This document shows, piece after piece, positions 2,151 through 50,686 of a DNA stretch of 64,000 bases. Source of the stretch: Kiritimatiellia bacterium (GTDB lineage: Bacteria > Verrucomicrobiota > Kiritimatiellia > CAIKKV01 > CAITUY01); NCBI GenBank assembly GCA_038330175.1, contig JBBQNS010000004.1:67-64066 (forward strand), given 5' to 3'. A program made the translations under genes and the position numbers. Every line of letters starts with the position of its first letter. Position 1 is the first letter of the stretch. Under the pieces are notes generated by a model. It was given only the letters and a program-made list of their open reading frames with translations. It was not told where the DNA came from and did not search any database.

Positions 2151-3601
2151 ACCCCATCTCCATCCAACTCGAGTGCCCGAGCGGCCAGTTGCACGGCCTT
2201 CTGCATGCCGCGAGCCTTTTGACATGTTTCCTGGAATTCCTTCACCGGGTCGGAGTCGTAAACAATTCCGGCACCCGCCTGGATCGCCACGGTACCATTC
2301 GCCACTTCCAGAGTGCGAATCGTGATCGCCAAATCCATATTGCCATCATAGCCAACATATCCAACAGCTCCCCCATACACGCCGCGGGGTTCGGGCTCCA
2401 ATTCATGGATAATCTCCATGGCACGAATCTTGGGCGCACCCGAAAGAGTTCCGGCCGGGAACGTCGCTCGAATGACATCGTAGGCATCAAATTCTTTCCG
2501 CAATACGCCTTGCACATGGGACACCAAGTGCATTACGTGACTATAGCGTTCAATAACCATATAGTCAGTCACCTGCACGCTCCCCATCTCCGAGAGCCGC
2601 CCAATATCGTTGCGGCCCAGGTCTACCAACATCACATGCTCAGCACGCTCCTTCTCATCCGAAAGCAATTCATCCGCCAGCGTCCGGTCCTCCACGTCAT
2701 CCTTCCCGCGCGGTCGTGTTCCGGCAATGGGGCGTAATTCGACTTTGTTACCGGTCAGACGGACCATGACTTCAGGCGATGACCCTACGAGGATCTGCCC
2801 CCCCATTTTCAAAATGAAAGTATAGGGAGACGGATTCAGCAGCCGCAAGGCGCGATAGAGGTCTAGCGGCGGGATATCGGCTTTGGCACTGAACCGCTGG
2901 CTCAAAACAACCTGAATAATATCACCTGAATAAATATATCTCTTGGCCTTTTCGACCATTGCGCAAAATTGCTCCTGAGTTTGATTCGATTCAAACGTCA
3001 CCTCGCCCAAACTGCGGTGGCTCACTGGCCGATCCATGGTTTGATTCAGGGTATGTTCGACCCCTTCAATCTCCGCCACCGCGCGCCGATAGGCCGCCTC
3101 CGGTGAGGGTGATTCAGAGGGGCGGGTGCACACCACAATCTTGATGGTATGGCGGATATTGTCGAAAACAATCATACGATCGGCTTGCACGAACCGACTG
3201 CGCAGCCGCATTCCCGGCCGGCCGGCTTTAGGTTCAGGCATGCGCTCAAATTCGCCCGTCGCCTCATAGCCAATAAACCCTACAGCCCCGCCGATAAAAC
3301 GCGGAAGCCCGGGTACTACAGCAACCCGAACGCCTTTAAAAATACCACGGAGTTCCTCAAGCCCTTTTCCCGGTTTGCGGTGATCTACTTCCAGGAACGG
3401 ACGCGGGTCGATACCGACAAAAGAGTAGCGCCCCCATTTTTCGCCCCCCTCCATGCTTTCCAAAAGAAAGGCATTCTCCCGGTTCATGAAACGCTGCAAA
3501 ACAGAGACCGGCGTCTCGGTGTCAGCCAGAATCTCCTTGTACACTGGCACGATGTCATAGGCCCGTGCCAGTCCGGCATAATCTTTTTCGTTTGGAAACA
3601 T
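2147..3601 (-). CDS. trpE: anthranilate synthase component I
   Basis: 484 aa. Chorismate-binding enzyme motifs are present (..GAVGYVGYDGNMD.., LVDLGRNDIGR). Confidence 0.9.
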   Translation of the reverse strand: MFPNEKDYAGLARAYDIVPVYKEILADTETPVSVLQRFMNRENAFLLESMEGGEKWGRYSFVGIDPRPFLEVDHRKPGKGLEELRGIFKGVRVAVVPGLPRFIGGAVGFIGYEATGEFERMPEPKAGRPGMRLRSRFVQADRMIVFDNIRHTIKIVVCTRPSESPSPEAAYRRAVAEIEGVEHTLNQTMDRPVSHRSLGEVTFESNQTQEQFCAMVEKAKRYIYSGDIIQVVLSQRFSAKADIPPLDLYRALRLLNPSPYTFILKMGGQILVGSSPEVMVRLTGNKVELRPIAGTRPRGKDDVEDRTLADELLSDEKERAEHVMLVDLGRNDIGRLSEMGSVQVTDYMVIERYSHVMHLVSHVQGVLRKEFDAYDVIRATFPAGTLSGAPKIRAMEIIHELEPEPRGVYGGAVGYVGYDGNMDLAITIRTLEVANGTVAIQAGAGIVYDSDPVKEFQETCQKARGMQKAVQLAARALELDGDGV

Positions 3602-3650
3602 AATGTTTCTATGTATAGAAACAGCGGTTTAAAAAGTCAATAGGGATTTC

Positions 3651-4070
3651 TCAGGGTTCTTTTGACGTAAGGACGCGGCCGGGGAAATTCTGTGACAAAG
3701 CGGCCACAAGGCTGGCATGAAACTGTTGATAGTATTCGCGTCGTTCAAACCCACGACTGAGCGGCAATAAATGGACGGCAATGTTTCCGTTAGCCCTTTT
3801 GGCATAAAAGGCAACCGTCAGGCTTGAGGTCGGTTGATAATACCGAATGATGTCCTCATCGCTGGGTTTGGTCTTTGGCATCTGATACGCCGCCGCGACC
3901 TTGTCTAGTACGGCACGGAGGCGATCCTCGTCCGCTTCAGTCACTTTCTCCTGCCCGGCTAGCGGCTGAACCATATAAAAGGCAATCTGTGGGCGTTCGC
4001 CGCATCCTGCAACCAAAAACAACCCTAAAACCACCATACTCAGAGTAACGAACCTAGTTGATAGTTGCAT
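3651..4070 (-). CDS. lipoprotein of unknown function
   Basis: Internal Met start gives MQLSTRFVTLSMVVLGLFLVAGC, a lipobox signal peptide. A GGGAG Shine-Dalgarno lies upstream of 4070. Confidence 0.5.
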   Translation of the reverse strand: MQLSTRFVTLSMVVLGLFLVAGCGERPQIAFYMVQPLAGQEKVTEADEDRLRAVLDKVAAAYQMPKTKPSDEDIIRYYQPTSSLTVAFYAKRANGNIAVHLLPLSRGFERREYYQQFHASLVAALSQNFPGRVLTSKEP

Positions 4071-4252
4071 TTTCAATCTCCCGTGTTTATCCGAACCCGT
4101 CCACCGCACCATGCGGCGAGACGACCAATACTGCTTTCGTTAAGCTAACAACCCTACGGGAAGAAAGAAACGTGATTTTAAAAGAGGACAATATTTGTCG
4201 TGCGGAGAAAAGAAATTAGCATTAAACTTCTAACAAATTGGGAGACGATAAC

Positions 4253-6328
4253 ATGACGCAACAAACAAGCCATAAGCCACGAAAAGCCAACCGGCTGGCG
4301 GGAGAAAAGTCGCCCTACCTCCTACAGCATCAATATAACCCAGTGGACTGGTTTCCTTGGGGTGACGAGGCCTTTGCCAAGGCGCAGTTCGAGAAAAAGC
4401 CGATTTTCCTGAGTATCGGCTACTCAACGTGCCATTGGTGCCACGTCATGGAACGTGAGTCCTTTGAGAACGAAGAGACCGCTCACTATCTCAACGAACA
4501 CTTCGTGAGCATCAAAATCGATCGTGAAGAACGGCCGGATCTTGACCGAATCTATATGACGTTTGTGCAAGCGACCACCGGCCAAGGCGGCTGGCCTATG
4601 AGCCTTTTCTTGACGCCCGACTTGAAACCCTTTTTTGGGGGCACCTATTTTCCACCCACGAGCCGCTCCGGCCTCCCCGCATTTACAGATTTGTTAAAGC
4701 AAATTCAACAGGTGTGGACGACGCGTCGAGACGACTTACAACGTTCAGCAGAGACCATCGTCCAACAGCTTCAAGAAGCCGCCCAGCAACAGGCAACTGA
4801 CGAAAGCCCCCTCTCGCAGGCGCTCCTTGGTGTAGCCGCCAACGGGCTAAAACGCGCTTACGATTCGCAAAACGGCGGATTCGGTCAGGCTCCTAAATTC
4901 CCGCATCCAAGCCAATTACTCTTTCTCCTGGGCTATGGTGCGGAACAGGGTGATGAAGAGGCCCTACAAATAGTTCTGAACACCTGTGACAAAATGGCGA
5001 ATGGAGGGATATTCGATCAGCTTGGCGGCGGGTTTTCCCGGTACGCAACAGATGAAAAGTGGCTGGTTCCCCACTTCGAGAAAATGCTTTATGACAATGC
5101 CCTTCTCACCCACGTCTATCTGGAGGCCTTTCAAGCAAGTGGTAATTCGCGATACGCCGAAATCGTCCGAGCAACCTTAAACTACCTTCTCCGAGATATG
5201 ACCGCCCCCGCAGGAGGCTTCTATTCAGCTGAAGATGCTGATAGTGAAGGCAAGGAGGGAAAGTTTTACTGTTGGACCCTTGCGGAAATGAGTGATCTCC
5301 TTTCCCCGGCAGAACTCAAGGTGGCCGTACGCTATTTTGGAGTGACCTCTGAAGGCAACTTCATAGACCATAGCGATCCCGATCCCCTGCCAGGACAGAA
5401 TGTACTCAGCGTTGTTTCCCCCTTCTTAACGGAGGCGGACGGGAAGCTCTTGGCCTCGGCAAAGGAGAAAATGTTCGACGCGCGAACGCACCGAACGCGA
5501 CCACACCGTGACGACAAAATCCTGTCCTCATGGAACGGCTTGATGCTGGGTGCACTAGCGCAAGCCTACGGGGTGTTAGGCGACAAAATCTATCTGGATG
5601 CGGCCCAAAACAATCTGGCTTTTTTGCGTCATCATCTTTGGGATTCGTCGAGCCAGACACTCTATCATCGCTGGCGGGAAGGAGCCCGGGATTCCGTCCA
5701 GTTGCTTAGTGCCTATGCTTTTTTGCTTTCCGGAGTGATTAACCTATATGAAGTCACGCTAGAGCCCGATACCCTCAACTTTGCGGTAGAACTAGCCGAT
5801 GCCATGCTGGATAAGTTTTTCGATCCAGAAAACGGTGGGTTCTGGCAAAGCGGAAAAGAAAGCCGCAATCTCATACTGCGAACCAAAGACGATTACGATG
5901 GAGCGGAACCCTCCGGAAACTCCGTAGCCACAATCGGGCTGCTCAAGTTGGCAGAAATTACCGGACGCGATGATTTGATGAAGGCTGCTGAGAAAACCCT
6001 GCGCCTCTACGCTAAGCGCCTGCAGGAGCAGCCCGAGGCACTGCCACATCTGCTTATTGCTGCAATGAGGGCGCTGGGAAAGCGCCACAGGATCGTGATC
6101 GCGGGAGATGTCAAGTCGGGCGTGGGTCTCGAACTCCTTCGTGCCGCACATGCGGTATACCACCCCTCCCAGGTCATGCTCGGAACTGCAGGGCCAGTCG
6201 ACTCCTTTGCGCGCAGCCTTTCCGCAAGGGATGGGAACCCTGCTACCTACGTCTGCGAGGGAACTACCTGCCGTCTCCCTGTAACTTCGGCAGCAGCACT
6301 CCGTAGCAGCTTGATGGCAGGCGCATGA
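4253..6328 (+). CDS. thioredoxin-domain protein, YyaL/DUF255 family (N-acylglucosamine 2-epimerase-like C-terminal (alpha/alpha)6 domain)
   Basis: N-terminal thioredoxin-like region (..[20 protein letters not shown]..) followed by a long alpha/alpha-barrel region. An ATG at 4253 has a GGAGA SD; the ORF-track start at 4238 is a TTG. Confidence 0.8.
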
Positions 6329-9450: not shown

Positions 9451-9563
9451 CGGGCATTGCTCCACGTATTTTTCGTTGCCAGTCAAAGAGCGTTCATCAA
9501 TAACGATTGCTTGCGCGGGTCCATTTTGCTTCACTGTATACAAATCAGGAGATCGTATACAAC

Positions 9564-9860
9564 ATGAAAACATTGACCATATCCCTTCGCCTTAGCTCCG
9601 ATGAAGTCGCGCTATTGGATCAGGCGGCTAAACACGACGGCCTGGACCGGTCTTCCCTGCTAAAACGCTTCCTTAGGCGCGGTCATGCTGATTATCGATA
9701 TGAAACGGCATGTACAGCCTATCGACGGGGCGAAGTCACCCTGTCCCGTGCGGCCGAAATCGCGGGCATGAGCGTCTACGACCTGTTGATCCGGTTCCCG
9801 GAGTCGGGGCTCCAACTCAATCTCACAGCCGACGATCTCCGCCGGGAATTGGCCTCATGA
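9564..9860 (+). CDS. antitoxin, UPF0175-family (RHH-like N-terminus)
   Basis: MKTLTISLRLSSDEVALLDQAAK.. plus a C-terminal UPF0175-like segment (TLSRAAEIAGMSVYDLL). There is an AGGAG SD at 9547. Its stop overlaps the start of the downstream PIN-like gene (ATGA). Confidence 0.7.
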   Translation: MKTLTISLRLSSDEVALLDQAAKHDGLDRSSLLKRFLRRGHADYRYETACTAYRRGEVTLSRAAEIAGMSVYDLLIRFPESGLQLNLTADDLRRELAS

Positions 9861-10351
9861 ATGTCGTTGTATCGGATGCCTGCCCGATCATCTTTCTGGC
9901 TAAACTGGATCGACTGGCCTTGATCCAAGCCGTATTCCCCGGAACGATACTGTTGCCGGCAAGCGTTCAGCGCGAACTCACACAGAAGACCATTCCCTCC
10001 GCTGAACAACGCCGTATCCGGGACTGGCTCATGCACTGCCGCGTGGAGACGGTTCGGAGTTCCCTGTTTCCTGCCTTGGCACTGAGCCTGGCGGACCGGC
10101 ATGTCCTGACCTTGGCAGCGAAACACCCGAACGCGATCATTCTGACGGACGACAGCCTCATGTGGCGTATCGCCTTAGCGGAAGGGTTGCCCGTCGCAGG
10201 TACACTCGGCCTCATGATCCGTGCCGTGCGCGCCAAGCTTGTCACCCAGCCAGACGCCCTCCACGCCATTGACGAACTGGTCACGCAACATCAGCTCCGG
10301 GTTTCCGTCGACCTCTACCAGGAAGCCCTTCGCCAGATCCGACAAGGATGA
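9857..10351 (+). CDS. PIN-like toxin, DUF3368 family
   Basis: Internal Met MNVVVSDACPIIFLAKLDRL... is coupled to the upstream antitoxin. UPF0175/DUF3368 is a recognised antitoxin/toxin pairing. Confidence 0.65.
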   Translation: MNVVVSDACPIIFLAKLDRLALIQAVFPGTILLPASVQRELTQKTIPSAEQRRIRDWLMHCRVETVRSSLFPALALSLADRHVLTLAAKHPNAIILTDDSLMWRIALAEGLPVAGTLGLMIRAVRAKLVTQPDALHAIDELVTQHQLRVSVDLYQEALRQIRQG

Positions 10352-10773: not shown

Positions 10774-12066
10774 CTAATAAAGCTCTTGAGCTTTAGCCAC
10801 CGTGGCTTTGATGCTTCCACGCTTATTGGCGACGAAGGTAGCGGCCCGACTCCCCAATGCATTTCGCATGGGTTCATCTGCAAGTAACTGGTCCAGCTTC
10901 TCATGAAGTTCTGCCTCCGACCCAACCTGAAGCAAGGCATCGGACTCCTTAAATTCGCGAACAATATCGGCGAAGTTCTCCATATTGGGGCCGACCACTA
11001 CGGGACGTCCACACACCGCAGGTTCAATAATGTTCTGCCCACCATGCTGTGTCAGGCTTTTTCCAATAAAAATGACCGTAACCGCCGTGTATAGATGCTT
11101 CAATTCGCCCGTGGTATCAACCAACAGCACACCGGGTGTGTCGCCCGCTGACAAAGAGCCGCCTTTACTCCGCTGAACGAACATAAGGTTGCGCCGTTCA
11201 ATTAAAGCGACCACCTCATCCCGACGCTCAGCGTGGCGCGGGACCAATATCAATTTTAGATTAGGGAACTTTGTCTTTGACTGAAGATAATAATCGAGCA
11301 AGACGTCTTCTTCACCCGGCCAGGTAGACCCGCCCAACAAGATCAAATCACCGGGCACCATGTGTGCAGCTGCAAGAATCGCTGTGGCGGCTTCCAGACT
11401 GCCAGGATCCTTGAGCGCCACATCATACTTAGCGCTTCCGGTCTCCTGAACGCAGCCTGACCTCGCTCCAAGCGTCAGATAGCGGGCTTGATCCTGCGGC
11501 CCTTGAACACACAGATGATCCACCATCCGTAGCAATGGCGTGAATAACCAGCGATAGCGATAATAGCCCTTGAAAGATCGATCCGACATACGCCCATTAA
11601 TTAACAGTACCGGAATGGCTCGGTCCTTGCTGAGTCGGATCAAATTTGGCCAGAACTCACATTCCGTCAAGACCAGCATCCGGGGCTTCAATAATCCCAA
11701 AACCCGCTTGATAACCCAGGGAAAATCGACGGGGAAATAGATCAGCACGTCATCCTTATTTAAAGCCTTGGCCGCAAGGGTATGCGCCGTGGACGTGTTA
11801 ACACTCAGCACGAAAGCCATATCAGGCTGGAGTTGGCGCCATTCCTCCATGAAGCGAAGCGCTACATAGGTTTCACCTACACTTACCGCATGAACCCAAA
11901 CGCGGGAGCGTTCATTGATATGCGCCTTCAGAGCATCATCATAGTTCCCTAACCGCTGCATGAAGCCTTTGGCATAGCCGCCCCGTCGGCACATCCGCAG
12001 CAAGAAATAAGGCAACATCGCCAAGAACAAAATTGGAAATAATAAATTATAAATCAGCCAAATCAT
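10774..12066 (-). CDS. waaA: 3-deoxy-D-manno-octulosonic acid (Kdo) transferase
   Basis: 430 aa with an N-terminal membrane anchor and WVHAVSVGE motif, and GT30/KdtA-like overall. Confidence 0.85.
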   Translation of the reverse strand: MIWLIYNLLFPILFLAMLPYFLLRMCRRGGYAKGFMQRLGNYDDALKAHINERSRVWVHAVSVGETYVALRFMEEWRQLQPDMAFVLSVNTSTAHTLAAKALNKDDVLIYFPVDFPWVIKRVLGLLKPRMLVLTECEFWPNLIRLSKDRAIPVLLINGRMSDRSFKGYYRYRWLFTPLLRMVDHLCVQGPQDQARYLTLGARSGCVQETGSAKYDVALKDPGSLEAATAILAAAHMVPGDLILLGGSTWPGEEDVLLDYYLQSKTKFPNLKLILVPRHAERRDEVVALIERRNLMFVQRSKGGSLSAGDTPGVLLVDTTGELKHLYTAVTVIFIGKSLTQHGGQNIIEPAVCGRPVVVGPNMENFADIVREFKESDALLQVGSEAELHEKLDQLLADEPMRNALGSRAATFVANKRGSIKATVAKAQELY

Positions 12067-12081
12067 AATATCACACGCTCC

Positions 12082-13047
12082 CTACGCTCTCGGGTGGGCA
12101 TCATCGTATACTTTCTTCAATTTTTCCACAGTTACATGTGTATAGATCTGGGTAGTGGACAAGCTGGCATGGCCCAGCAACTCCTGCACACTCCGTAAAT
12201 CGGCGCCTGCATCCAACATGTGGGTGGCAAAAGAATGCCGCAACGAATGCGGCGAAATGTCCGGGTTAAGATTGGCACCCAACAGGTATTTCTTCAGCAA
12301 CCGCTCAACCGACCGGCTCGTCAATTTGCCACCATGGACATTCAAAAATAGCGGACGGTCATTCGGACGCCGGCGCTCTATCTCTGGCCAGAGTTCATTC
12401 CGCAGCACAAGGGAGACTCGCAGGGCTTTGGCCGCTGGGCGTCCCAATGCGCACAGACGCTCTTTTTTACCTTTACCGCGCACCTGCACCACCCCGCTCA
12501 GGGAGTCCACCTGGGGCTCCAAAAGTCCGACGATCTCGGTAATACGGCCTCCGGTACTATATAGCACCTCGAGAATAGCTTGATCACGCAACGCGCAGTA
12601 TTCCACCAGCTTACGTTCACGCAACTGTTTCGGCTTTTTCGCATCTGCCCATAACTTCAGGGGCATTTCCAGCAAGCGGTTAATTTCATCGCGTGACAGG
12701 AAATTAGGCAGTTTCTTGGCGCGTTTTGGAGCCTTCAATCCCGAGAATGGATTCAGTGTTACCATCGCCTCACGCTCCATAAATTTATAAAACGCGCGCA
12801 GGCTGGACAATTTCCGAGACGTGGTCGTGGCCTCACTCCCGCGCTTCTGGAAATCAACTAAAAAGGCACGTGCCTTAAATCGATCAACGGTCTCCCATTC
12901 ATAGGGAGGCAAGGCATCTCCAGTCCAGGTGAAGCGGATAAACTGGGCGATATCCATCAGATAGTTAGCTATGGTGTGCCGTGACGCATTTCGTTCATGC
13001 TCCAGATGGGCGGCATACTGGGATACGCAAGGGTCATCCGTCATCAT
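12082..13047 (-). CDS. xerC: tyrosine recombinase XerC/XerD family
   Basis: C-terminal catalytic region ..HSLRHSFATHMLDAGADLRSVQELLGHASLSTTQIYTHV.. with the nucleophilic Tyr. An N-terminal SAM-like domain is present. The start is uncertain; the ORF extends to 13143. Confidence 0.85.
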   Translation of the reverse strand: MMTDDPCVSQYAAHLEHERNASRHTIANYLMDIAQFIRFTWTGDALPPYEWETVDRFKARAFLVDFQKRGSEATTTSRKLSSLRAFYKFMEREAMVTLNPFSGLKAPKRAKKLPNFLSRDEINRLLEMPLKLWADAKKPKQLRERKLVEYCALRDQAILEVLYSTGGRITEIVGLLEPQVDSLSGVVQVRGKGKKERLCALGRPAAKALRVSLVLRNELWPEIERRRPNDRPLFLNVHGGKLTSRSVERLLKKYLLGANLNPDISPHSLRHSFATHMLDAGADLRSVQELLGHASLSTTQIYTHVTVEKLKKVYDDAHPRA

Positions 13048-13654
13048 GGCCCCACCCTGCCCGGCTCCACCGAGGGCCGGCACATTGGAAGCCGAGGGGA
13101 GATGCGCAGGTTTGCGCTTCAGATAGGGCTCGTCAAGGTTCATAAGGTTGATTTCGTCATCAGAGAAAAATAGTCGGGGTATACAAGCAAATCAATTTTT
13201 TTCTCAGTCATCTCGCCAGGGCAAACGCCTCGAAGCGCTATCCGGGTAGTTCGCGCGCTATGAGCGCGACATTCTCTCCGCATGCAGGATGCCAATGGCG
13301 GGCTCGTAACGCCCAACACCATTAACTCTTCAAAGGCTATTGAAATAAAAATGATGCACCACCCGCTTTGCTTGAGGCACGGAGACACAGAGAACTCACA
13401 CATCGGTAGCGGCAAGTCCAAATGTGGCGTGTATTTCGTCCACGGGGGTACCCATTTAATATTTCACAGGTCTTCTCTGTGTCTCTGTGTCTCCGTGCCT
13501 CTAGCGCTAGCGAGTGGTATATCTTTTTCTGAAATAGACTTCGAAATGTTAGTGGCATTGGGCTCGTAGCGCCCGCCCTCCCCGCATAAATTAGATGCGT
13601 ATACTTTAGTCATCTCGCTTGACCTAAGGCTCTTTTTCCTTCACCCTTCCCAAC

Positions 13655-14770
13655 ATGAAAATTTTACAGCCTCGCCAACGGCCCTTATTGTTGCTTGCAC
13701 TTGCCTTTTTGATTCCCCTGCCCTTCTGTTTGGGTGCCTATCTGGTTAATATCGAAGTAGCCCTGCGGATATTTTACCCGACTCTTCATGTGCTAGACCG
13801 AATTTTGCCAGTCGGCCTCTATCACCTCTGGGCCGCCTTATCTGCCGACCTCAGTACCGTTAGCACGTTGATTCCATTAATGATTCTGGCGATACCGCTC
13901 GGACAGATATTCCGCATCTTGCGACGGCAGGAGTCTGACCCCACGTTTGCCCAGCGTTTAGGGCCTGACCCCTATCCCTCACATTTCGGTTTTTTCCAGG
14001 TCATGCTGGGACTTACCGGTACACTTTACGGCATGTTCATCGGTTTGGATGTGAGCGGCGTCAGTGAATTAGCCGGCCATGCCCCCTCCGCTGATTCCAT
14101 TCGTCAATCGCTGGACCGGCTACTCGGCGGAACAGCCACAGCCTTGTTGAGCTCACTGGTGGGCTTGATCGGTGCCTTTGTCACCGCCCGCCCCATTCCC
14201 TGGATTTTCGGACGAGTCACTGGCGTCAAAGCTGATGAAACCCGCCAAACGCTCACCGCCACCATCGAACGCTTAACTGAAGATCTGCGTGGTTTAAGCC
14301 AGGCAAGCCGCACGTTTACTGATTATCTGAATCCGGATACCGCCAACACCATCCTCCAGCGCATGGACCGACAGGAGGCCGCTACACGCGAAGCTTGCTC
14401 TAAACTGGAAACGATTGGCCAACTTCTGGATACCCTGAACCAAAAACAGGCCGTGCAAGACCGCCAGCTCATCGCCCTCGAAAAACTGACCGACGTGGCG
14501 ACCGCTTCGCGGGATAATCAAGAGAAGACCAATGTGGCGCTTGCCGCCATCGCCCAAAGTCAAGCCATCGCCACAGAACGCCTCACTCGTCTTGACTCGG
14601 TAAATGAGCTTATACTCCGCCTTGTCGAAGGCCAGGAAACAAGACATCAGGATGAACTGAAGGCGCTATCGGGAATGACCGCCGTTGCCAATGCACAACG
14701 GGAACAGGTCCAGCGGGATCATGACGCCCTTCGTAGCGCGCTAGCCGCCTACCTTAACCCGAGCCGGTAA
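13655..14770 (+). CDS. MotA/TolQ/ExbB-family proton-channel protein with C-terminal coiled-coil extension
   Basis: Four TM segments. TM3 reads MLGLTGTLYGMFIGL (compare the G-L-x-G-T-V-x-G-I/M signature of ExbB/TolQ/MotA). TM4 reads ALLSSLVGLIGAFVTARPIPWIF (compare ALIATAIGLFAAIPAV). Then come ~170 aa of heptad-rich, Q/E/L/A/R-rich sequence. Confidence 0.7.
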   Translation: MKILQPRQRPLLLLALAFLIPLPFCLGAYLVNIEVALRIFYPTLHVLDRILPVGLYHLWAALSADLSTVSTLIPLMILAIPLGQIFRILRRQESDPTFAQRLGPDPYPSHFGFFQVMLGLTGTLYGMFIGLDVSGVSELAGHAPSADSIRQSLDRLLGGTATALLSSLVGLIGAFVTARPIPWIFGRVTGVKADETRQTLTATIERLTEDLRGLSQASRTFTDYLNPDTANTILQRMDRQEAATREACSKLETIGQLLDTLNQKQAVQDRQLIALEKLTDVATASRDNQEKTNVALAAIAQSQAIATERLTRLDSVNELILRLVEGQETRHQDELKALSGMTAVANAQREQVQRDHDALRSALAAYLNPSR

Positions 14771-14775
14771 TCCCT

Positions 14776-15549
14776 ATGAGCTCACAACACGACGAACATA
14801 AGGACTATGAGCAGTTGGATGAAGCCATCGGCCACTCCACGCACAAGCTCTTTAACATGAGTCCTAACGATGTCCTGGTGCAGATTGCTCTTCCCGTCGT
14901 ACTGATTCTTGCCATTGCCACCCGCCTAATCACCATCGGCCAGGGTATGTCTAATCAAAGCCAGAATCCCGCGATCCTCGATTTATGGAAACAACATCTC
15001 ATCTTGCGAGTCGACCGCACGCTTGACCACTGGGAGAAGGAGTCTGGGTTAGCCCAATTCTCGGATTTCAACCGGGTTTACTGGTCCAATCATTGGCCGG
15101 ATGACGATCGGTTCCGCCAACTCTGCAAAAAAGCGGCCGAGTTGGCCGATATGGAGAAGCTTAAGGAAACGCTCTATCGGGAAGCCCTCAATGGAGCCCT
15201 TTCCGTTCAACCAGGTGATGCAAACCCTGGGCAATTTGTGAGCCTCTATGATCCCCGCTATGCGGCTCCCGGGGTCATTTCAAATTCCGTTCCCCCGGAG
15301 TTCCAGATAGATGATACCCGCCGTCAATTTGCGTTTCAGTATATTGAAGAACGTTGCAAGCGATGGAATCGGGAAATTGAAGATTTACAATGGAAACTGG
15401 TCGACCACCTTGCAGCGGAACTTCCCGCCGGGGATCCGCTCACGGATGCACGACTCGAAACCCAAATGAAAAAAATCGCATCAGCTCTCGAAGCACGTGG
15501 CTATCCTTTATTACCCGGCCTCACCCACGAATACCGAAAGGCACCCTGA
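14776..15549 (+). CDS. single-pass membrane protein with MotB/TolR/ExbD-like N-terminus (Asp at TM start) and unrecognised C-terminal domain
   Basis: ..MSPNDVLVQIALPVVLILAIATRL.. places an Asp immediately before a single TM, as in ExbD/TolR/MotB. The ~200-aa C-terminal domain has no obvious OmpA-like or ExbD-like motifs. It starts 6 nt after the upstream stop. Confidence 0.55.
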   Translation: MSSQHDEHKDYEQLDEAIGHSTHKLFNMSPNDVLVQIALPVVLILAIATRLITIGQGMSNQSQNPAILDLWKQHLILRVDRTLDHWEKESGLAQFSDFNRVYWSNHWPDDDRFRQLCKKAAELADMEKLKETLYREALNGALSVQPGDANPGQFVSLYDPRYAAPGVISNSVPPEFQIDDTRRQFAFQYIEERCKRWNREIEDLQWKLVDHLAAELPAGDPLTDARLETQMKKIASALEARGYPLLPGLTHEYRKAP

Positions 15550-15552
15550 CCC

Positions 15553-17961
15553 ATGAAATACACACCCTTTGCAGTATTCGGTCTTGGAATGCTTGCCGTT
15601 TTTGGAACGTTGACCGCCAATTACGGTGAAACCACCAATGCCTTACCCAGCCAGGCCGATTCAGCCAAAGACCGCGCGAAATGGCGACTAGCCACGATTT
15701 CGGCCGCCCGTGAAATCCTGGATGAACTGAACCATCCTCAGCCCCTTGGGTCTGATGATCGGGCGGTTCTAGTCGATAAGTTAAATAACGCCATGCAAAA
15801 GGATTTGCAGGCACACGCCTCACGCTCCGCTAGCCAGAATTTGTGCGCCGAAATTGCGATCAAAATGCGACGGGAAAATCTCGAGCGCAGATTTAAGGAG
15901 GTGACAGCCCATGCGAATGAGCAGTCGCTACTCTCTGTCACTTGGGCAGACGTTGAATCCCATCTGGGCGGCGGCTGGAGCAATACCGTCGAGCAAGCCA
16001 TGCAGTCTTTCGCCAATACCGAACTGGCTCCTTTATTCAAGGATTCCCGCGCTCGGGCAGTTGGCCTGCTACGACAGGAATTGGAACAACAATTCCGATT
16101 CCCCACGGAGAACGAAGTCAACGGAATGCTGGGAGAACTCGTTGCCCGGCATTCAAATTCGCCAGCCTTAACGGCAAACGATGAAGCCGTGCTTCAACAA
16201 CAGATTATGGATTTGGCCAATCCCGAGCATAAGGTCTATTTTGAAGAGCTCGCGCAAGTCCTAAGGGAACCCACGCTCCGAATATCCGGAGAAACCCGAA
16301 AGCAATATGAGCGACAACTAAGTTTGCTGGATACAGCGGCAAGTCAGAGGGTCCCTAATGACCGTCGTCAGGCCTCAACCATCGGGACGGCACTCGTCAA
16401 AGCCATCGAAAATGATCTTGAGATTGAACGCGCAAAGCCACCTATCACAGATGTCGGTGGAAAGATTATCCCCGTTTACCCGCTTCTGGCACCTGTCCTC
16501 AGTTTCGTTCCCGTCATTGCAACGAAACTGGAATCCGAACGCCTGATCACTTTTCTTGCCCAGTGCCCCGTCTTGGCCCTTCAGTCCGATTCTCTTGCCA
16601 AGGTCATCCGCGCAGCGCCAGAAAAACATCACACGTTAGCATTGAGTGAAAACGAATTCATGACTTCACTACAGCCCGACCTTCTGGCAAAAGCAACCAC
16701 CGCTTATGCCGCTGAAGCAAACCCCGTAGGCGAAACCCATTATTTCGAAACGTTGCTGACAACAAATCCAGCCCTCACAACTGCTTTTAAAGCACGGGTA
16801 TCCATCGAACTCCACGCCCAATTGCCAGAGGCGCGACGCGCTGTCAGCGAAGAACAGTTCAACAAAGCCTTTTCTTCGCTGGAACGTCAGGTCGTACTGT
16901 CTTCTGAGGCACTTGCCCTCTTGCAGGATTCCGGAGGTGCGGCCCTGACATCACTATCGGAGGCTGCAAAACTATTCGGAATCTCGGTTCGCAATAATAA
17001 TTCCCTTTTGGAAGAAACGGTCAATCGAGTTCTGACCCTTTCCAATCAGAAGGCGCGGGAAGGCTATGACGTACTCACTTCACAATTGACCCTCGTCCGT
17101 AAACTCGAACAGGATCGCCTTGCCAAGCTTCGTGACGACGTTGCAGCCCGCCGTCCCTACAAAGCCATACGTGCAGAGTGGCAAGCTGCTCTTGAGGCCG
17201 CATGGAGCGCCGATTCCCGCTCCCAGTCAACTCCCTATAAAGAAATCTTGGATCTGACACTGGCGAGTTTGAATAAGGCGGTTCGACAGCTCTATGACTC
17301 GGTTCAGGAAAGTCCCACTACCGCAACGGCAGCCACACCGTCCGAGGCGAGGCCGACCACTGAAACCGAACAGGGAAAGGTCAAGGAATTGCTCCAAGTC
17401 CCAGCCAAACCGGAAGACCAGAACCCTGAGCCACAAAAAGAGGTTAAACCCCCTGCCCCCAAGACAAGCGACAAGGGTGCAGGTAGCGAGGGGGCGGCAG
17501 ACGTCGTGCTTAGCCGTACCCGCGTGGATCGCCGGAATGAACCTGACGGGATCCTGCTCCTTACCGGAGCGGCCACCGGTCCCGCCACGGCGCGTTTACT
17601 CAATCAGGCGGGTATGGCTATTTTCAGCATCTCATTCGATCCCGGGAAGCCCCAGGAGGCGGCTACGGTTATTTTTGAGGCCATGAAACCGCAGCTGAAG
17701 ACCATCTGGGCCAACACGGTTCTCGAGTGGCAAAAGGAACATAGCGGATTGGGCATCTTGAAACGGCGTACCCCGCCCAAGCTCAAACTTTTCATTGTCA
17801 TCGAAAGCGAAGATGTCCGCCATCGCATGAGCCTGCTGCTACGGCAGCACATCGACGAGCTCCTCACCGAATGGGATAAGGCGGCTGAAAAAGGCACCCC
17901 AGCAGTTGAATTAGACTGGAAAGTTGGCCTGACCTTTGAGCAGATCACTCAAGGCCCTTGA
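15553..17961 (+). CDS. large membrane-anchored helical protein with Pro/Glu/Lys-rich linker (TolA/TonB-like architecture), function unknown
   Basis: N-terminal hydrophobic anchor FAVFGLGMLAVFGTL, about 550 aa of A/E/L/Q/R-rich sequence, a PEDQNPEPQKEVKPPAPK linker, and a ~170-aa C-terminal domain. It starts 4 nt after the upstream stop. Confidence 0.5.
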   Translation: MKYTPFAVFGLGMLAVFGTLTANYGETTNALPSQADSAKDRAKWRLATISAAREILDELNHPQPLGSDDRAVLVDKLNNAMQKDLQAHASRSASQNLCAEIAIKMRRENLERRFKEVTAHANEQSLLSVTWADVESHLGGGWSNTVEQAMQSFANTELAPLFKDSRARAVGLLRQELEQQFRFPTENEVNGMLGELVARHSNSPALTANDEAVLQQQIMDLANPEHKVYFEELAQVLREPTLRISGETRKQYERQLSLLDTAASQRVPNDRRQASTIGTALVKAIENDLEIERAKPPITDVGGKIIPVYPLLAPVLSFVPVIATKLESERLITFLAQCPVLALQSDSLAKVIRAAPEKHHTLALSENEFMTSLQPDLLAKATTAYAAEANPVGETHYFETLLTTNPALTTAFKARVSIELHAQLPEARRAVSEEQFNKAFSSLERQVVLSSEALALLQDSGGAALTSLSEAAKLFGISVRNNNSLLEETVNRVLTLSNQKAREGYDVLTSQLTLVRKLEQDRLAKLRDDVAARRPYKAIRAEWQAALEAAWSADSRSQSTPYKEILDLTLASLNKAVRQLYDSVQESPTTATAATPSEARPTTETEQGKVKELLQVPAKPEDQNPEPQKEVKPPAPKTSDKGAGSEGAADVVLSRTRVDRRNEPDGILLLTGAATGPATARLLNQAGMAIFSISFDPGKPQEAATVIFEAMKPQLKTIWANTVLEWQKEHSGLGILKRRTPPKLKLFIVIESEDVRHRMSLLLRQHIDELLTEWDKAAEKGTPAVELDWKVGLTFEQITQGP

Positions 17962-17982: not shown

Positions 17983-18113
17983 CCCTGCCCACGCGGCTCA
18001 GCCTCTTCGACAAGCTCAGGGCAGGCAAGCTTCGCCCTCCAGAAGAACATGATAGACAGAGATGAGATGTTTCTTTTGGAGGGCGATGCTTGCCGGGCCG
18101 CGTGAATAAAAGG
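17983..18113 (+). repeat. long-hairpin palindromic element, copy A of 3
   Basis: ccctgccc-acgcggctcag..gcttcgccctccagaaga-[loop]-tcttttggagggcga..gccgcg-tgaataaaagg. Shared with 21373-21486 and 50568-50686 (inverted). Confidence 0.8.
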
Positions 18114-18166: not shown

Positions 18167-18400
18167 ATGAATGCTATTTTGGAACTTAATTCACGAGGGA
18201 CGCTAACGCTTCCAAAGGCCATGCGACGCCTTCTGGGGCTGGATCATGGGGGACGGATCATTGCGGAGACTTCGGAACAGGGAATATTGTTGCGCCCTGG
18301 CGTGGCTTTCCCTATCGAAATCTACTCCGATGCCCGGGTATCCGAGTTTGACTCCGCCGAGGAGGAACTTGGGAAACATCTGAAGCGTCGTTCAAAATGA
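18167..18400 (+). CDS. vapB: antitoxin, AbrB/MazE/SpoVT-fold (VapB-like)
   Basis: 77 aa, ..GTLTLPKAMRRLLGLDHGGRII.. swapped-hairpin-type antitoxin. It overlaps the downstream PIN gene by 4 nt. Confidence 0.7.
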   Translation: MNAILELNSRGTLTLPKAMRRLLGLDHGGRIIAETSEQGILLRPGVAFPIEIYSDARVSEFDSAEEELGKHLKRRSK

Positions 18401-18813
18401 GGGTGTTCGCTGACGCCAATGTCCTATTCTCCGCGGCCGATCCCAAAAGCGCCACACGAATACTATTGGAGGCTCTCTTCCAACATGCTGCCGTTGTGAT
18501 CAATGAGCATGTTTGGGAGGAAGTTAGGCGAAATGTTGACTTGAAACGTCCAAGCCTGATTTCCAGTCTCGAGAAGCTCAAACCTCGCTTTCACATGAGC
18601 GCAAAGATGACAGTCTTGAAAGACGTTGCACTTCCCGATAAGGATCAACCTGTTTTGGGAGGAGCCGTAGCAGACCAATGTTCACATCTTTGGACTGGCG
18701 ATAAGCGTCATTTTGGGCATTTGTATGGGAAAACTATAGGCGGCACTCTTGTTGTTTCCGCAACGATGCTGGCCGATGAACTGCAGCGCAAAGACTGGAT
18801 CATATTTAGATAA
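18397..18813 (+). CDS. vapC: PIN-domain toxin (VapC-like)
   Basis: MRVFADANVLFSA... with an N-terminal acidic residue pattern and ..TGDKRHF.. C-terminal motif, paired with the upstream antitoxin. Confidence 0.7.
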   Translation: MRVFADANVLFSAADPKSATRILLEALFQHAAVVINEHVWEEVRRNVDLKRPSLISSLEKLKPRFHMSAKMTVLKDVALPDKDQPVLGGAVADQCSHLWTGDKRHFGHLYGKTIGGTLVVSATMLADELQRKDWIIFR

Positions 18814-21372: not shown

Positions 21373-21486
21373 ATGATTCACCCTGCCCACGCGGCTCAGC
21401 AAGCTTCGCCCTCCAGAAGATATGATCTATAAGGGCAAGATTATTCTTCTGGAGGGCGAAGCTTGCTGAGCCGCGTGAATAAAAGG
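21373..21486 (+). repeat. long-hairpin palindromic element, copy B of 3
   Basis: Near-perfect ~30-bp stem cacgcggctcagcaagcttcgccctccagaaga / tcttctggagggcgaagcttgctgagccgcgtg with a ~25-nt loop. Confidence 0.85.
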
Positions 21487-39885: not shown

Positions 39886-40768
39886 ACACGGTATCCATGA
39901 AATTGCGCTCGACCCGGGTAAACAGGACCACTCCAAGCACCAACACCACCAGGGCAAATCCCGCGCTGTACAAAAGATGAACTGGCGCAAAGGTGCCCGT
40001 CCCCATGAATGCATATCGGAATGACTCAATAACGGAGGTCAGCGGATTGGCCAGCATCAACAGTCGATAGTTCCCATGCAAAGATGAGAGTGGAAAAATC
40101 GCAGGAGTCGTGTACATCAATAATTGCACGCCAAAGGTCAGCAGGAAGCGTAGGTCACGGTATTTGGTCGTTAGGGCAGAGAAAATGATACCTAATCCCA
40201 GCGCCAGACCCGCCATGATGAGCATCATGATCGGCAAAAGCCAAAGTACAGAAGTTGGATGAATGGAAGCGCCTGACAAGAAATACCACACCCAGAAGCA
40301 GGCGAAAAAAGCTAACCGCAGCCCAAATTGAATCAGCTCCGAAATCACAATAGAGACGGGCACAGAAAGCCTGGGGAAATACACCTTTCCGAAAATATGA
40401 GCATTAGACACAAAGGTGCTGGATGTGGAATTCAATACCCCGGCAAAATATCCCCATACAATCTGACCCGACATATAGAATAACAACTTAGGTAGGCCGT
40501 CCGTTGAGAGCCCAGCCATCGTGCCAAAGACCAACGTGAAAACCAACGTTGCCAAAAGGGGCTGAAGCACAAACCAAAGCGGCCCCAAGATCGTCTGTTT
40601 GTATTGAGCTACAAAATCACGTCGAATAAACAAGAGAATCAGATCGCGGTATCGCCATAAATCGCGGAGATGTAAATCAAACCAAGCGGCTTGAGGACGC
40701 AGAACCACATCCCATTTCTCAGGATCATCTGGGATTGGCACGTCTTGAATCTCCGAAGCCGGGCGCAT
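39884..40768 (-). CDS. wzm: ABC-2 type polysaccharide export permease (Wzm/TagG-like)
   Basis: Six TM segments and ABC-2 family organisation. It is adjacent to wzt. Confidence 0.8.
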   Translation of the reverse strand: MRPASEIQDVPIPDDPEKWDVVLRPQAAWFDLHLRDLWRYRDLILLFIRRDFVAQYKQTILGPLWFVLQPLLATLVFTLVFGTMAGLSTDGLPKLLFYMSGQIVWGYFAGVLNSTSSTFVSNAHIFGKVYFPRLSVPVSIVISELIQFGLRLAFFACFWVWYFLSGASIHPTSVLWLLPIMMLIMAGLALGLGIIFSALTTKYRDLRFLLTFGVQLLMYTTPAIFPLSSLHGNYRLLMLANPLTSVIESFRYAFMGTGTFAPVHLLYSAGFALVVLVLGVVLFTRVERNFMDTV

Positions 40769-41217
40769 CAGAAATCACCTCGTGGATAATCAGGCTTATT
40801 TCTCCGCCACCAAGCCCCTTGTCTCCAGAACCTCCATCCTCCTCCAATTCCCATGAAAGAGGCTACTAACATACAAATCACGGGCGCACGGAGCCGAAAG
40901 TCAACAAGTGAATGAAGCGCTACCCCCAGCAAAGCAAGAGACAAACAATAACGTCCCCAACGCCCTAAATCGAAATAGGAACGCCCTCGAACAGCGGGCA
41001 GAAACCACATCATTACCAATGTGCTCCCAAGTAATACGGTGCCCACCAAACCAAATTCCGCAAGAATCTGAAAATACTCATTATGGGCGTGACGGAAAAA
41101 ACCCGGGATATCCGATGGCTGATAGTAGGGAAACACTTCCGAAAAAGTTCCGGCGCCTGAACCAGCCACCCAGCGATCTGAAATCAGACGAATAACTCCG
41201 CTCAAGGGATGTGACAT
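40768..41217 (-). pseudogene. O-antigen ligase (Wzy_C/WaaL-like) C-terminal domain only
   Basis: It contains the Wzy_C signature HAHNEYFQILAEFGLVG. At 149 aa it is much shorter than the ~400 aa of full ligases. Confidence 0.45.
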
Positions 41218-41525
41218 CCTGCATTAAACCTGAAAATAAATACCGCAATTATTCCCCCCTTACTTATTATTCATAACTATATATCATTCCGATATTTGCA
41301 ACAAGGCTAAAAGGGTATGTTTTCTATACATTTTTCAGGGCAGTCATGTCGATGTCGATGTCGAGGAACGAGATGCAAAAGTTCCAGCCACAGATGATGC
41401 AGGGGCGTATAATGTTCTGGTCGGCATACAGCGCATCAAAATGTCACTGATCGAGTGTAATACACGCTTTGTGGACAAGCCTTAGCAGCGAGAGTATTTT
41501 CATACGCAACAACAGGAAAAAAAGC

Positions 41526-42017
41526 ATGCCCCTTACCAACAATGATACATTTAAAAGGCTTCGTTATAATCTAAACCTGAACGATAACAAGCTTGTCGAG
41601 ATTTTCAGGCTGGGCAACTTACCTCTTGATCGCGAGGTGATCCAAAATATGATGAAAAAAGACGGCGAGGAAGGATACATCGCGTGTTCCGATGCGGTGC
41701 TCTCCTCTTTCCGTGACGGTCTAATCATCAAGCGCAGGGGGAAGCGTGAGAATGCGCCACCGGCTGTATATAATTCCGAGTTTTGTCTGAGCAATAATGA
41801 CATCCTTAAAAAGCTGCGTATCGCCCTTGAATTAAAGGAAGATGATGTACTGGCTCTCATGAAAAAGGCAAAAATAGATATTACGCGCTCCGGGCTCAGC
41901 GCTCTGTTTCGTCAGAGAGACCACAAAAACTACAAACCTTGCGGAGATCAGTTCCTGAGAAACTTCATAGCGGGGCTGAAAGATCTGTATAATAATGAAG
42001 TCCCCCTCGTACATTGA
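41526..42017 (+). CDS. DUF1456 (YehS-like) protein
   Basis: Two tandem DUF1456-type repeats (..NDTFKRLRYNLNLNDNKLVEIF.. and ..NNDILKKLRIALELKEDDVLALMKKA..). Confidence 0.65.
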   Translation: MPLTNNDTFKRLRYNLNLNDNKLVEIFRLGNLPLDREVIQNMMKKDGEEGYIACSDAVLSSFRDGLIIKRRGKRENAPPAVYNSEFCLSNNDILKKLRIALELKEDDVLALMKKAKIDITRSGLSALFRQRDHKNYKPCGDQFLRNFIAGLKDLYNNEVPLVH

Positions 42018-50567: not shown

Positions 50568-50686
50568 CACCCTTTATTAGCGCGGCTCAGCAAGCTTCGC
50601 CCTCCAGCAGAAAAATCCTGCCTTTGTAGATCATATTCTTCTGGAGGGCGAAGCTTGCCTGAGCCGCGCGGGCAGGGTGAATCAGG
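50568..50686 (-). repeat. long-hairpin palindromic element, copy C of 3 (inverted orientation)
   Basis: caccctttattag-cgcggctcagcaagcttcgccctccag..ctggagggcgaagcttgcctgagccgcg-cgggcagggtgaatcagg. It is the reverse complement of the A/B consensus, including the terminal tgaataaaagg and ccctgccc blocks. Confidence 0.85.

Follow-up and report, generated by a model that had tools for sequence, protein, structure and literature searches.

Three tightly packed genes in the genome of a Kiritimatiellia bacterium resemble a membrane motor, in which an A subunit of the MotA/ExbB type is paired with a B subunit carrying an Asp in its single transmembrane (TM) helix. A preliminary description of the locus offered two readings, a new Zorya-like antiphage defence variant or a divergent Tol/Ton-type energiser, and the question is to which known system, if any, the trio belongs. 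It fits neither well: each of the two readings fails on features that define the system concerned. We consider it probable that the genes encode an inner-membrane, ion-driven 5:2 motor of the ZorAB type whose periplasmic side has been rebuilt. The periplasmic half of such a motor and its large secreted partner resemble nothing described.

Organization and conservation of the cassette

The window (the whole stretch of 64 000 nt that was analysed) carries the genes as listed in table 1. The ORF listing reproduces exactly the coordinates and lengths first reported for the three forward-strand genes; the gaps between them, first given as 6 and 4 nt, measure 5 and 3 nt. The neighbours are also as described: a Xer-type tyrosine recombinase (12082–13143, reverse strand) on one side and a MazE/PIN pair (18167–18813) on the other. 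The structured region noted upstream of the trio corresponds to an intergenic palindrome (13297–13578, z = −9.5).

Table 1. Features of the three-gene cassette and the adjacent repeat element (positions in the window).
Feature	Position	Strand	Description	Basis
Gene 1	13655–14770	+	371 aa, A subunit (ZorA type) of a putative ion-driven 5:2 motor	ORF, family alignment, profile matches
Gene 1 membrane core	13655–14209	+	residues 1–185, four TM helices	AF2 model, invariant columns
Gene 1 coiled-coil tail	14210–14767	+	residues 186–371	AF2 helices, conservation
Gene 2	14776–15549	+	257 aa, B-subunit-like protein	ORF, 96 homologues, alignment
Gene 2 single TM helix	14863–14940	+	residues 30–55 (SPNDVLVQIALPVVLILAIATRL)	invariant columns, AF2 helix 30–59
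Gene 2 periplasmic domain	14977–15546	+	residues 68–257, predicted all-alpha	motifs WKQQLILR and GYPLLP conserved
Gene 3	15553–17961	+	802 aa, predicted secreted periplasmic partner protein	ORF; 3' of gene 2 except in L035/L036
Gene 3 Sec signal peptide	15553–15633	+	about residues 1–27	family n-h-c N-termini, AxA-like sites
Gene 3 conserved core	15634–17307	+	residues 28–585	sole part kept in all homologues
Gene 3 linker	17308–17502	+	residues 586–650, Pro/Glu/Ala/Thr/Lys-rich	composition
Gene 3 C-terminal domain	17503–17958	+	residues 651–802, VRHRMS motif and invariant Trp	alignment
Palindromic element	18011–18110	.	starts 50 nt past the gene 3 stop	repeat-family member

Genes 1–3 co-occur and are translationally coupled. 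The same order is found in every related locus that is long enough, with the exception of L035 and L036, which have genes 1 and 2 only; it is kept from 86% down to about 25–35% identity, the distant loci L052 and L053 included, and sequence identity declines in parallel for all three proteins across loci. Throughout the family B follows A, and stops and starts overlap or nearly touch. As first proposed, the trio is undescribed: no account of it was found in Pfam, NCBIfam, PADLOC, PHROGs, the PDB or the searched literature.

Gene 1 and its relationship to ZorA

Gene 1 had been taken for a MotA/ExbB-like channel with an unusually short TM2–TM3 loop and a coiled-coil C-terminus of about 170 aa, and these features are borne out. 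In the AF2 model the TM helices span about residues 8–40, 68–91, 111–133 and 146–178. The periplasmic loop contains the invariant residues D65, S67 and T71, and the cytoplasmic loop, about 22 residues long in both the alignment and the model, an invariant PYP. The tail, of about 185 aa, is modelled as two long helices (200–224 and 227–367); its base, which shows a heptad pattern (L200/L207/L214 and T203/D210/A217), is conserved, as is an RxALRxALAAY motif at its tip. Tail length in the family ranges from 63 to 243 aa (median 192). The positive-inside pattern and the analogy with ZorA place the tail, in all probability, in the cytoplasm.

The signature helices of gene 1 contain MLGLTGTLYG and GGTATALLSSLVGLIGAF. 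The motifs originally quoted, MLGLTGTLYGMFIGL (residues 117–131) and ALLSSLVGLIGAFVTARPIPWIF (residues 163–185) in gene 1 and NDVLVQIALPVVLILAIA (residues 31–48) in gene 2, are all present and form the best-conserved parts of the respective families (more than 100 homologues of gene 1 and 96 of gene 2); such family-wide conservation excludes chance. Residues G119, G122–G126 and G159–S167 are invariant in the gene 1 family.

The full-length gene 1 profile matches Escherichia coli ZorA (8qyd) in the PDB with E = 5.4e-7, and full-length gene 1 matches ZorA2 in PADLOC with E = 9.7e-8, the significance of the full-length matches being due in part to coiled-coil composition (domain 2 of the 8qyd search). 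Without the tail, the TM profile still retrieves four ZorA chains from the PDB (E = 0.015–0.07), the sole matches below E = 0.9; chains of ExbB, TolQ and MotA are absent at E ≤ 10. In PADLOC, all 16 tail-less family members searched match the ZorA1/2/3 models (best E = 2e-6), and ZorA accounts for 17 of the 18 PADLOC families matched by such members. In the 8qyd profile alignment, two invariant gene 1 residues, T123 and T160, correspond to Thr147 and Ser184 of ZorA, which touch Asp26 of ZorB (PMC11946911). As judged from these profiles, the membrane core of gene 1 is homologous to ZorA, but remotely. The profile link to ZorA/MotA agrees with the initial placement in the MotA/ExbB superfamily, and the nearest kin among solved structures and defence models is ZorA.

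Alternatively, the trio could consist of lineage-specific membrane and periplasmic proteins, with a convergent likeness to ZorA caused by Gly/Thr-rich TM helices and coiled-coil composition. All matches are indeed weak and below curated cut-offs: the NCBIfam ZorA models give about 15 bits with gene 1 (cut-offs 500–700), and Pfam MotA_ExbB is missed in every case (E = 0.16 at best, apart from the L053 homologue discussed below). Structure searches likewise yield no significant match (in Foldseek against the PDB, the best 17 hits of gene 1 are all ExbB or TolQ and the first ZorA has rank 19), and gene 2 lacks detectable homology to any B subunit. Convergence is nevertheless very improbable, as the tail-less matches point to ZorA alone, in three independent subtypes and in every one of the diverse members, and neither the partner Asp nor either of the two hydroxyl residues critical for function varies in the family. 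A weak match to Pfam MotA_ExbB (E = 0.0094), obtained independently with the distant L053 homologue, falls on the same helices, and gene order and coupling are those of all known 5:2 systems.

Among these systems, Zorya (types I–III; E. coli ZorA–ZorB 8qyd, 8qyh, 8qyk and 8qyy) is the closest in several respects. The signature helices align with TM2 and TM3 of ZorA, including the residues that touch the B-subunit Asp; gene 1 and ZorA both end in a cytoplasmic coiled-coil tail whose base is conserved; and the A gene lies 5' of the B gene. However, gene 1 has four TM helices instead of three, its short loop leaves essentially no membrane-proximal cytoplasmic domain (Gly48–Leu127 in ZorA), and the tail of ZorA is much longer (about 500 aa). 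The four-TM topology is that of MotA and PomA, but the large cytoplasmic TM2–TM3 loop that generates torque in these proteins is missing. GldL–GldM and PorL–PorM are also 5:2 motors with a C-terminal cytoplasmic extension of the A subunit and a long non-OmpA periplasmic output; the sole sequence relation to these motors is a match of gene 1 to PorL at the coiled-coil level (E = 0.023).

The periplasmic side: genes 2 and 3

Gene 2 is the best-conserved member of the trio. As in ZorB, a short N-terminal stretch in the cytoplasm precedes the only TM helix, which carries an invariant Asp. N31 and D32 are invariant in the 96 homologues and lie at the cytoplasmic end of the helix, as does the Asp of MotB and PomB, and distant subfamilies keep an acidic residue (D or E) at the place of Asp32. 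This is the B-subunit layout that had been recognized at the outset. The periplasmic domain is confidently predicted by AF2 to adopt a novel all-helical fold. Neither an OmpA-like domain, as in ZorB, MotB and PomB, nor an ExbD/TolR-like one is present according to sequence searches and the predicted structure, as previously supposed: the domain has no match to OmpA, MotB, ExbD or TolR, and gene 2 sequence searches gave none to MotB, ExbD, TolR or ZorB. Since the sequence matches no known B subunit, gene 2 is assigned to this class from its architecture and the Asp only.

Gene 3 matches nothing in Pfam, the PDB, PADLOC or PHROGs. It had been described as a TolA/TonB-like protein with an N-terminal anchor, about 550 aa of low-complexity sequence, a linker and a C-terminal domain, a description that needs revision in several places. 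The anchor is better read as a predicted cleavable Sec signal peptide: all homologues have one, with classic n-h-c regions and AxA-type sites (e.g. AASA/QNG and ISA/QSD), ahead of a mature N-terminus with the conserved sequence PKxRAKxxLAxRAAA. The central part is rich in Ala, Leu, Glu and Arg and probably helical; instead of being of low complexity, it has conserved positions scattered over its full length. The L047 and L053 homologues match this core only. The linker (15% Pro, 14% Glu, 11% Lys) is poorly conserved, and the C-terminal module is dispensable or swapped in some members: L047 lacks it, and in L053 a TM anchor takes its place. Neither full-length gene 3 nor its C-terminal domain alone shows TonB_C/TolA similarity in the PDB or Pfam.

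These data bear on the Tol/Ton reading, in which genes 1 and 2 would be equivalent to ExbBD/TolQR, and gene 3 to TolA/TonB as the trans-periplasmic link passing force to the outer membrane. The layout is suggestive: the two motor genes, A and B, are followed by one for a long protein able to span the periplasm, in which a spacer rich in Pro, Glu and Lys leads to a small C-terminal domain. Gene 1 is weakly similar to ExbB and TolQ at the fold level, these being its best Foldseek matches. The neighbours include envelope genes, namely LptF/G, ArnT-like PMT_2, DedA/VTT, LpoB, PLD and, in the window, the product of 10774–12066, which we take to be KdtA. TonB-dependent receptors are found near the cassette in four loci (4 of the 119 flanking ORFs), three of them titled Opitutales/Opitutia and one Verrucomicrobia bacterium. 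TolA and TonB, however, bind TolQ and ExbB through an N-terminal TM helix, in place of which gene 3 has a signal peptide. Further points against this reading are the variable C-terminal module devoid of TonB_C/TolA similarity, the modelled all-helical domain of gene 2, the preference of the gene 1 TM profile for ZorA and the long cytoplasmic tail, a feature foreign to Tol and Ton systems; nor does tolB or pal adjoin any of the examined loci. We therefore regard a Tol/Ton-type energiser as improbable.

Distribution, genomic context and possible function

Clustered at 50% identity, the gene 2 family accounts for only 58 clusters in a set of 1.84 billion representatives, and a pattern scan found 39 positive genomes among 185 579 species genomes. 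Wherever the source is named, it belongs to the PVC group of bacteria. The genomic context differs even between relatives with about 72–75% gene 1 identity. The recurrent neighbour families include no flagellar, T9SS or gliding genes, which sets the cassette apart from flagellar stators and from GldL–GldM/PorL–PorM; here, moreover, the periplasmic reach that belongs to GldM and PorM would be supplied by a separate secreted protein, gene 3.

A rare and patchy family with a shifting context, whose nearest A-subunit relative is ZorA with its specific coiled-coil tail, might be a new Zorya subtype, genes 1 and 2 sensing envelope perturbation at phage entry. In one variant of this reading, gene 3 would be a sensor or a blocker in the periplasm; in another, the tail would enlist an effector encoded by the host. 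Some neighbourhoods are compatible with defence: toxin–antitoxin pairs flank the cassette in the window, a cluster with a TIR/caspase protein, TCAD9 and NUDIX is located about 6 kb upstream of the L004 cassette, and a methyltransferase and an AAA_15 ATPase are found about 5–9 kb upstream of the L049 cassette. Nevertheless, only about 6 of the 119 flanking ORFs look like defence genes, and the suggested travel with defence islands is not reflected in any enrichment; matches to DrmC among these ORFs are really PLD-type lipid enzymes. Homologues of ZorC/D/E are absent, as noted earlier, as is ZorF/G; the third gene product is instead predicted to be periplasmic, and the flanks of the examined loci contain no gene for a nuclease or another effector that accompanies the cassette. 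Gene 2 has no peptidoglycan-binding domain of the ZorB type, a domain that is essential in Zorya I and II (PMC11946911, PMC11890865). No copies occur on viral contigs, and PHROGs give no match. Defence systems usually spread widely by horizontal transfer, whereas the restriction to PVC-group sources and the parallel identities of the three proteins fit descent within a lineage better. Antiphage defence is thus unlikely, and we infer that an accessory envelope-linked role in sensing or force transduction is the better candidate.

In the rebuilt ZorAB-type motor that we favour, a pair of gene 2 subunits would sit inside a ring of five gene 1 subunits. The ion path would run via Asp32 of gene 2, facing the invariant hydroxyl-bearing T123 and T160 in gene 1, and ion flow would rotate the gene 1 pentamer with its tail (approx. 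25 nm) about the gene 2 dimer. The all-helical periplasmic domain may hold or regulate gene 2 in place of a peptidoglycan-binding OmpA domain and may dock the secreted 800-aa gene 3 protein, which could reach the wall or the outer membrane through its Pro-rich linker and C-terminal module. The cassette would then couple the state of the envelope to the rotating cytoplasmic tail, or the reverse, in a Zorya-like manner with no dedicated nuclease. It speaks against this model that the cassette encodes no cytoplasmic partner for the tail and that L035 and L036 do without gene 3.

The palindromic repeat element reported next to the trio is confirmed. Its 29-nt inverted arms occupy 18019–18047 and 18071–18099, and it may serve as a transcription stop; two more copies are present in the window, at 21388–21483 and 50573–50668.

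Organization and distribution of the cassette

The three genes of the cassette are closely packed on one strand. By their ORF coordinates the spacers measure 5 nt (genes 1–2) and 3 nt (genes 2–3), which corrects the 6 and 4 nt of the preliminary description; the motifs quoted there were found in the window proteins. Genes 2 and 3 share a reading frame, with a stop codon and a single sense codon between them. This is probably a coincidence. In related loci the gene 2–gene 3 junction is mostly a 4-nt overlap and in a different frame, and stop and start codons overlap in many loci of the cassette.

Features of the window in and around the three-gene cassette
Feature	Position	Strand	Description
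Toxin–antitoxin pair	9507-10351		presumed ribbon-helix-helix antitoxin and PIN-type toxin, read from sequence
Recombinase	12082-13143	-	Xer-type tyrosine recombinase
Imperfect palindrome	13297-13578		~280 nt, intergenic (recombinase–gene 1)
Gene 1	13655-14770	+	ORF, 371 aa
Gene 2	14776-15549	+	ORF, 257 aa
Gene 3	15553-17961	+	ORF, 802 aa
Palindromic repeat, copy 1	18011-18110		~90 nt, 29-nt arms, intergenic
Toxin–antitoxin pair	18167-18813		MazE/AbrB and PIN
Palindromic repeat, copy 2	21388-21483		~90 nt, 29-nt arms, intergenic
Palindromic repeat, copy 3	50573-50668		~90 nt, 29-nt arms, intergenic
Compositional extreme	40001-42000		GC 0.467, AT skew 0.233

All three proteins fall below every Pfam and NCBIfam threshold. 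There are more than 140 homologues of gene 1 and 96 of gene 2, all without annotation, and those with an organism name all come from PVC bacteria (Kiritimatiellia, Lentisphaerota/Victivallales and Opitutales). A scan of 185,579 species, represented by one genome each, yielded 39 loci, an undercount because the search used two exact peptide patterns; the titles are all PVC-group or unclassified. No cassette copy was found in a scan of viral contigs or in PHROGs, and no account of the trio family was found in the papers searched on ZorAB-like and MotAB-like systems.

The gene order is the same in all sufficiently long loci, with the exception of L035 and L036, which carry genes 1 and 2 without gene 3. 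Sequence identities of genes 1, 2 and 3 drop in parallel (for example 75/85/62%, 44/52/30% and 38/40/24%), with gene 2 always highest and gene 3 lowest. When 1.84 billion representative proteins were searched exhaustively with the gene 2 HMM profile, no more than 58 clusters were retrieved; 26 of these score below 1e-30, and no canonical MotB, ExbD or TolR is among the 58. The most distant members are also trios, with proteins of 316, 263 and 786 aa in L052 and of 556, 327 and 848 aa in L053. An apparent fusion of genes 2 and 3 in one locus (L019, a 1065-aa ORF) was rejected as an artefact, a masked run of N/X spanning the junction; a real fusion would have altered the topology argument.

Gene 1 and its relation to ZorA

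The preliminary description had placed gene 1 in the MotA/ExbB superfamily, and profile searches support this by way of ZorA. The family alignment contains two invariant blocks, PYP...F..F.VMLGL.GTLYG and GTATALLSSL.G..GAF. The full-length profile matches E. coli ZorA in the PDB (8qyd, E = 5.4e-7) and the window protein matches the ZorA2 model of PADLOC (E = 9.7e-8). Since the coiled coil supplies part of the full-length score, the searches were repeated with residues 1–195 only. This TM-only profile matches four ZorA chains in the PDB (E = 0.015–0.07), with nothing else below 0.9 and no ExbB, TolQ, MotA, PomA or GldL chain at E ≤ 10. With the same segment, 16 of 16 diverse members match ZorA1, ZorA2 and ZorA3 of PADLOC (best E = 2e-6), and ZorA accounts for 17 of the 18 PADLOC families matched.

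The window protein does not reach the gathering score of Pfam PF01618 (MotA_ExbB), a family matched weakly by five of the 16 members, all at E ≥ 0.16. The homologue in the distant relative L053 matches it over the same helices with E = 0.0094 (16.1 bits; the cut-off is 22.9). The NCBIfam ZorA models give 15.2 and 11 bits on gene 1, against cut-offs of 700 and 500. These comparisons suggest a remote kinship with ZorA, under the curated cut-offs.

In the profile alignment, gene 1 has its invariant T123 and T160 at the positions of ZorA Thr147 and Ser184. The two ZorA residues contact Asp26 of ZorB in the Zorya structure (PMC11946911); the numbering was verified via Pro163 and Glu164 of the same work. 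Gene 1 thus has the hallmark of an A subunit, namely two C-terminal membrane helices with the Gly/Thr-rich signatures that in such subunits line the ion path and contact the Asp of the B subunit.

The AlphaFold model of gene 1 (pLDDT 76.5) has four membrane helices. The loop between TM2 and TM3, already noted as short, comprises ~22 residues in both the model and the alignment, whereas MotAB has a large, torque-generating cytoplasmic loop at this place. The charge distribution suggests that the N-terminus, this loop and the tail are cytoplasmic. The coiled-coil C-terminus, first put at ~170 aa, is ~185 aa long and modelled as long helices (residues 200–224 and 227–367). Across the family the median tail length is 192 aa (range 63–243); conservation extends to a heptad pattern at the base and to the motif RxALRxALAAY at the tip. 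A long cytoplasmic C-terminal coiled-coil tail, the hallmark of ZorA in Zorya systems, is therefore found in gene 1, although the E. coli ZorA tail is longer, at roughly 500 aa (PMC11946911).

Genes 2 and 3

In gene 2, N31 and D32 are invariant and lie at the cytoplasmic end of the sole membrane helix, where the preliminary description had pointed out an Asp; the distant subfamilies retain an acidic residue at this site (SPIELL..., D.WNVFVQ...). The periplasmic part is modelled as all-helical, with pLDDT ~90 and no beta sheet of three or more residues. Sequence and profile searches against Pfam, NCBIfam, PADLOC and the PDB gave nothing meaningful. In particular, gene 2 has no MotB or OmpA match and differs in this from MotB, with its OmpA-like domain, and from ZorB, which has a dimeric OmpA/MotB-like peptidoglycan-binding domain. 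The ExbD/TolR-type periplasmic domain found on the B subunit of Tol and Ton systems is likewise absent. The invariant Asp32 and membrane helix, the helical fold and the lack of sequence matches argue for a protein with the layout of a B subunit and a new periplasmic domain.

For gene 3, the domain logic of TolA/TonB had been proposed, and this found no support. A typical Sec signal peptide stands at the start of every homologue. Its cleavage sites are AxA-like, and the mature N-terminus behind them is conserved (PKxRAKxxLAxRAAA). TolA and TonB are instead anchored by an N-terminal membrane helix that binds the A subunit. Because the cleavable signal peptide is family-wide, gene 3 is predicted to be periplasmic and not membrane-anchored in their manner. 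Conserved positions are dispersed throughout residues 28–585, a region of presumably helical character, which is followed by a Pro/Glu/Lys-rich linker (586–650) and a C-terminal domain of ~150 aa with the motif VRHRMS. Whereas Tol and Ton partners carry a TonB_C or TolA C-terminal domain, no such match was obtained among 23 full-length gene 3 members. The profile of the C-terminal domain has no match in the PDB or Pfam, and the full-length profile gave nothing meaningful in the PDB, neither TonB nor TolA. The C-terminal module is also variable: it is missing in L047 and is replaced in L053 by a membrane anchor and a cytoplasmic tail.

Genomic surroundings and interpretation

The surroundings of the cassette were surveyed with crude ORF calls over two genes on either side at each locus. 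The 119 ORFs so collected, from ~39 distinct loci, include no recurrent family beyond clade synteny, and the genomic contexts differ between loci. Five loci (L009, L049, L050, L012 and L013) share an upstream ArnT-like PMT_2 gene, a DedA/VTT gene and sometimes LptF/G; all of them except L013 also have an EIIA-type regulator downstream. The Opitutales loci have in common an AP-endonuclease-fold gene, an MFS transporter and an antiporter. Only with L046 does the window have flanking genes in common, namely the downstream esterase and Ppnp genes. There is no conserved fourth gene in 13 gene-called or ~39 ORF-scanned loci.

These data bear on both of the assignments first considered, a Zorya variant and a Tol/Ton-type energizer. 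ZorA in Zorya systems is linked to the effectors ZorC and ZorD, ZorE, or ZorF and ZorG. As had been noted for ZorC, ZorD and ZorE, the cassette has no such effectors, and PADLOC models match neither gene 2 nor gene 3. Despite its ZorA-like subunit, the trio fails as a member of Zorya because both the peptidoglycan-binding domain of ZorB and the effectors are lacking. As to defence islands, by raw count at most ~6 of the 119 flanking ORFs are defence-like, and the DrmC matches among the flanking ORFs are PLD-type enzymes. A standard Tol or Ton system would be expected in synteny with tolB–pal or in general linkage with TonB-dependent transporters; no tolB or pal was seen near cassette loci, and TonB-dependent receptors make up four of the 119 ORFs. 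Tol/Ton membership fails for the anchor of the partner, for the periplasmic domains of genes 2 and 3, the latter at the level of sequence profiles, and for synteny.

The best-supported interpretation is that the trio is a ZorAB-type 5:2 ion-driven motor with a rebuilt periplasmic side. Gene 1 would be present as a pentamer whose cytoplasmic tail measures ~25 nm and gene 2 as a dimer that bears the ion-binding Asp, and the new periplasmic domain of gene 2 would, together with the secreted gene 3, replace direct binding to the wall. The 5:2 stoichiometry, the rotation and a contact between genes 2 and 3 are what we infer for such a motor. An accessory role fits a cassette this rare and seemingly mobile, and classical defence is disfavoured by the PVC-only spread, the lack of an effector and the ordinary neighbourhoods.

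To our knowledge, only a handful of 5:2 ion-driven systems have been described (Mot/Pom, Exb/Ton, Tol, GldLM/PorLM, Agl and Zorya), and every one of them revealed a new use of the membrane potential for mechanical work. The cassette retains the ZorA-type rotor and tail, drops the wall binding of ZorB and the nuclease effectors, hallmarks that explain Zorya, and brings in two proteins without known relatives. Should it prove to be a motor, tailed ZorA architectures would not be bound to nuclease-based defence, and its minimal A subunit, which has hardly any cytoplasmic domain, would be a model for the transfer of rotation to a coiled-coil tail. We entertain, as a speculative and rather doubtful extension, that the trio is an unrecognized class of 5:2 machine, so far found only in PVC bacteria, in which the wall anchor of the B subunit has given way to a helical domain working with a dedicated secreted protein, and in which the ZorA-like tail acts on a host process without an encoded effector. 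Such a machine could be a Zorya relative without effectors, acting in the periplasm to stop phage from entering, or a new device for mechanical signalling from envelope to cytoplasm. A copy is present in two cultured strains of Kiritimatiellota (L042 and L044), which makes the question testable.

Two loci have additional genes nearby. The operon of L053 (11543-16984) runs on with four more genes on the same strand, of unassigned function, which may be additional components in that subfamily; an AAA_2 ATPase of 739 aa is encoded upstream on the opposite strand. One of the four encodes a 474-aa protein with a GGTGAGG motif and a weak Tubulin/FtsZ match below the cut-off (E = 0.0067), which was set aside as a functional clue. 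In L036, genes 1 and 2 are followed by a gene (2772-5102) whose 777-aa product contains coiled-coil segments; its C-terminal part we take to be OmpA-like from the sequence. This protein might act as a wall-binding substitute for gene 3; the candidate was dropped, being found in a single locus and having an N-terminus that looks cytoplasmic.

In the window itself, the upstream recombinase was confirmed (Phage_integrase, E = 2e-39). Two toxin–antitoxin pairs flank the cassette region. The downstream one, originally described as VapBC, is indeed a toxin–antitoxin neighbour, with MazE/AbrB as the partner of the PIN protein. It is absent from the syntenic L046, so its insertion between gene 3 and the esterase gene is recent.

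The structured region reported upstream of gene 1 is the long imperfect palindrome, with a folding energy of -130.6 kcal/mol (z = -9.5 relative to shuffled sequences) and no Rfam match. A 15-nt direct repeat, GGGCTCGTARCGCCC, borders it on both sides (13300 and 13560) and has no other copy in the window. L051 also contains, in both orientations, a 37-nt stretch of the palindrome arm. The region may be a MITE-like element or a site associated with the recombinase. The palindromic repeat seen near the cassette proved to have two further copies in the window. The copies are 81–82% identical pairwise and 73–76% identical in reverse-strand self-matches, and they look like a REP/MITE-type family; the first starts 50 nt past the gene 3 stop, and the repeat may double as a terminator. 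The segment where GC content dips and AT skew peaks, both to the extremes of the window, may be foreign or non-coding DNA.
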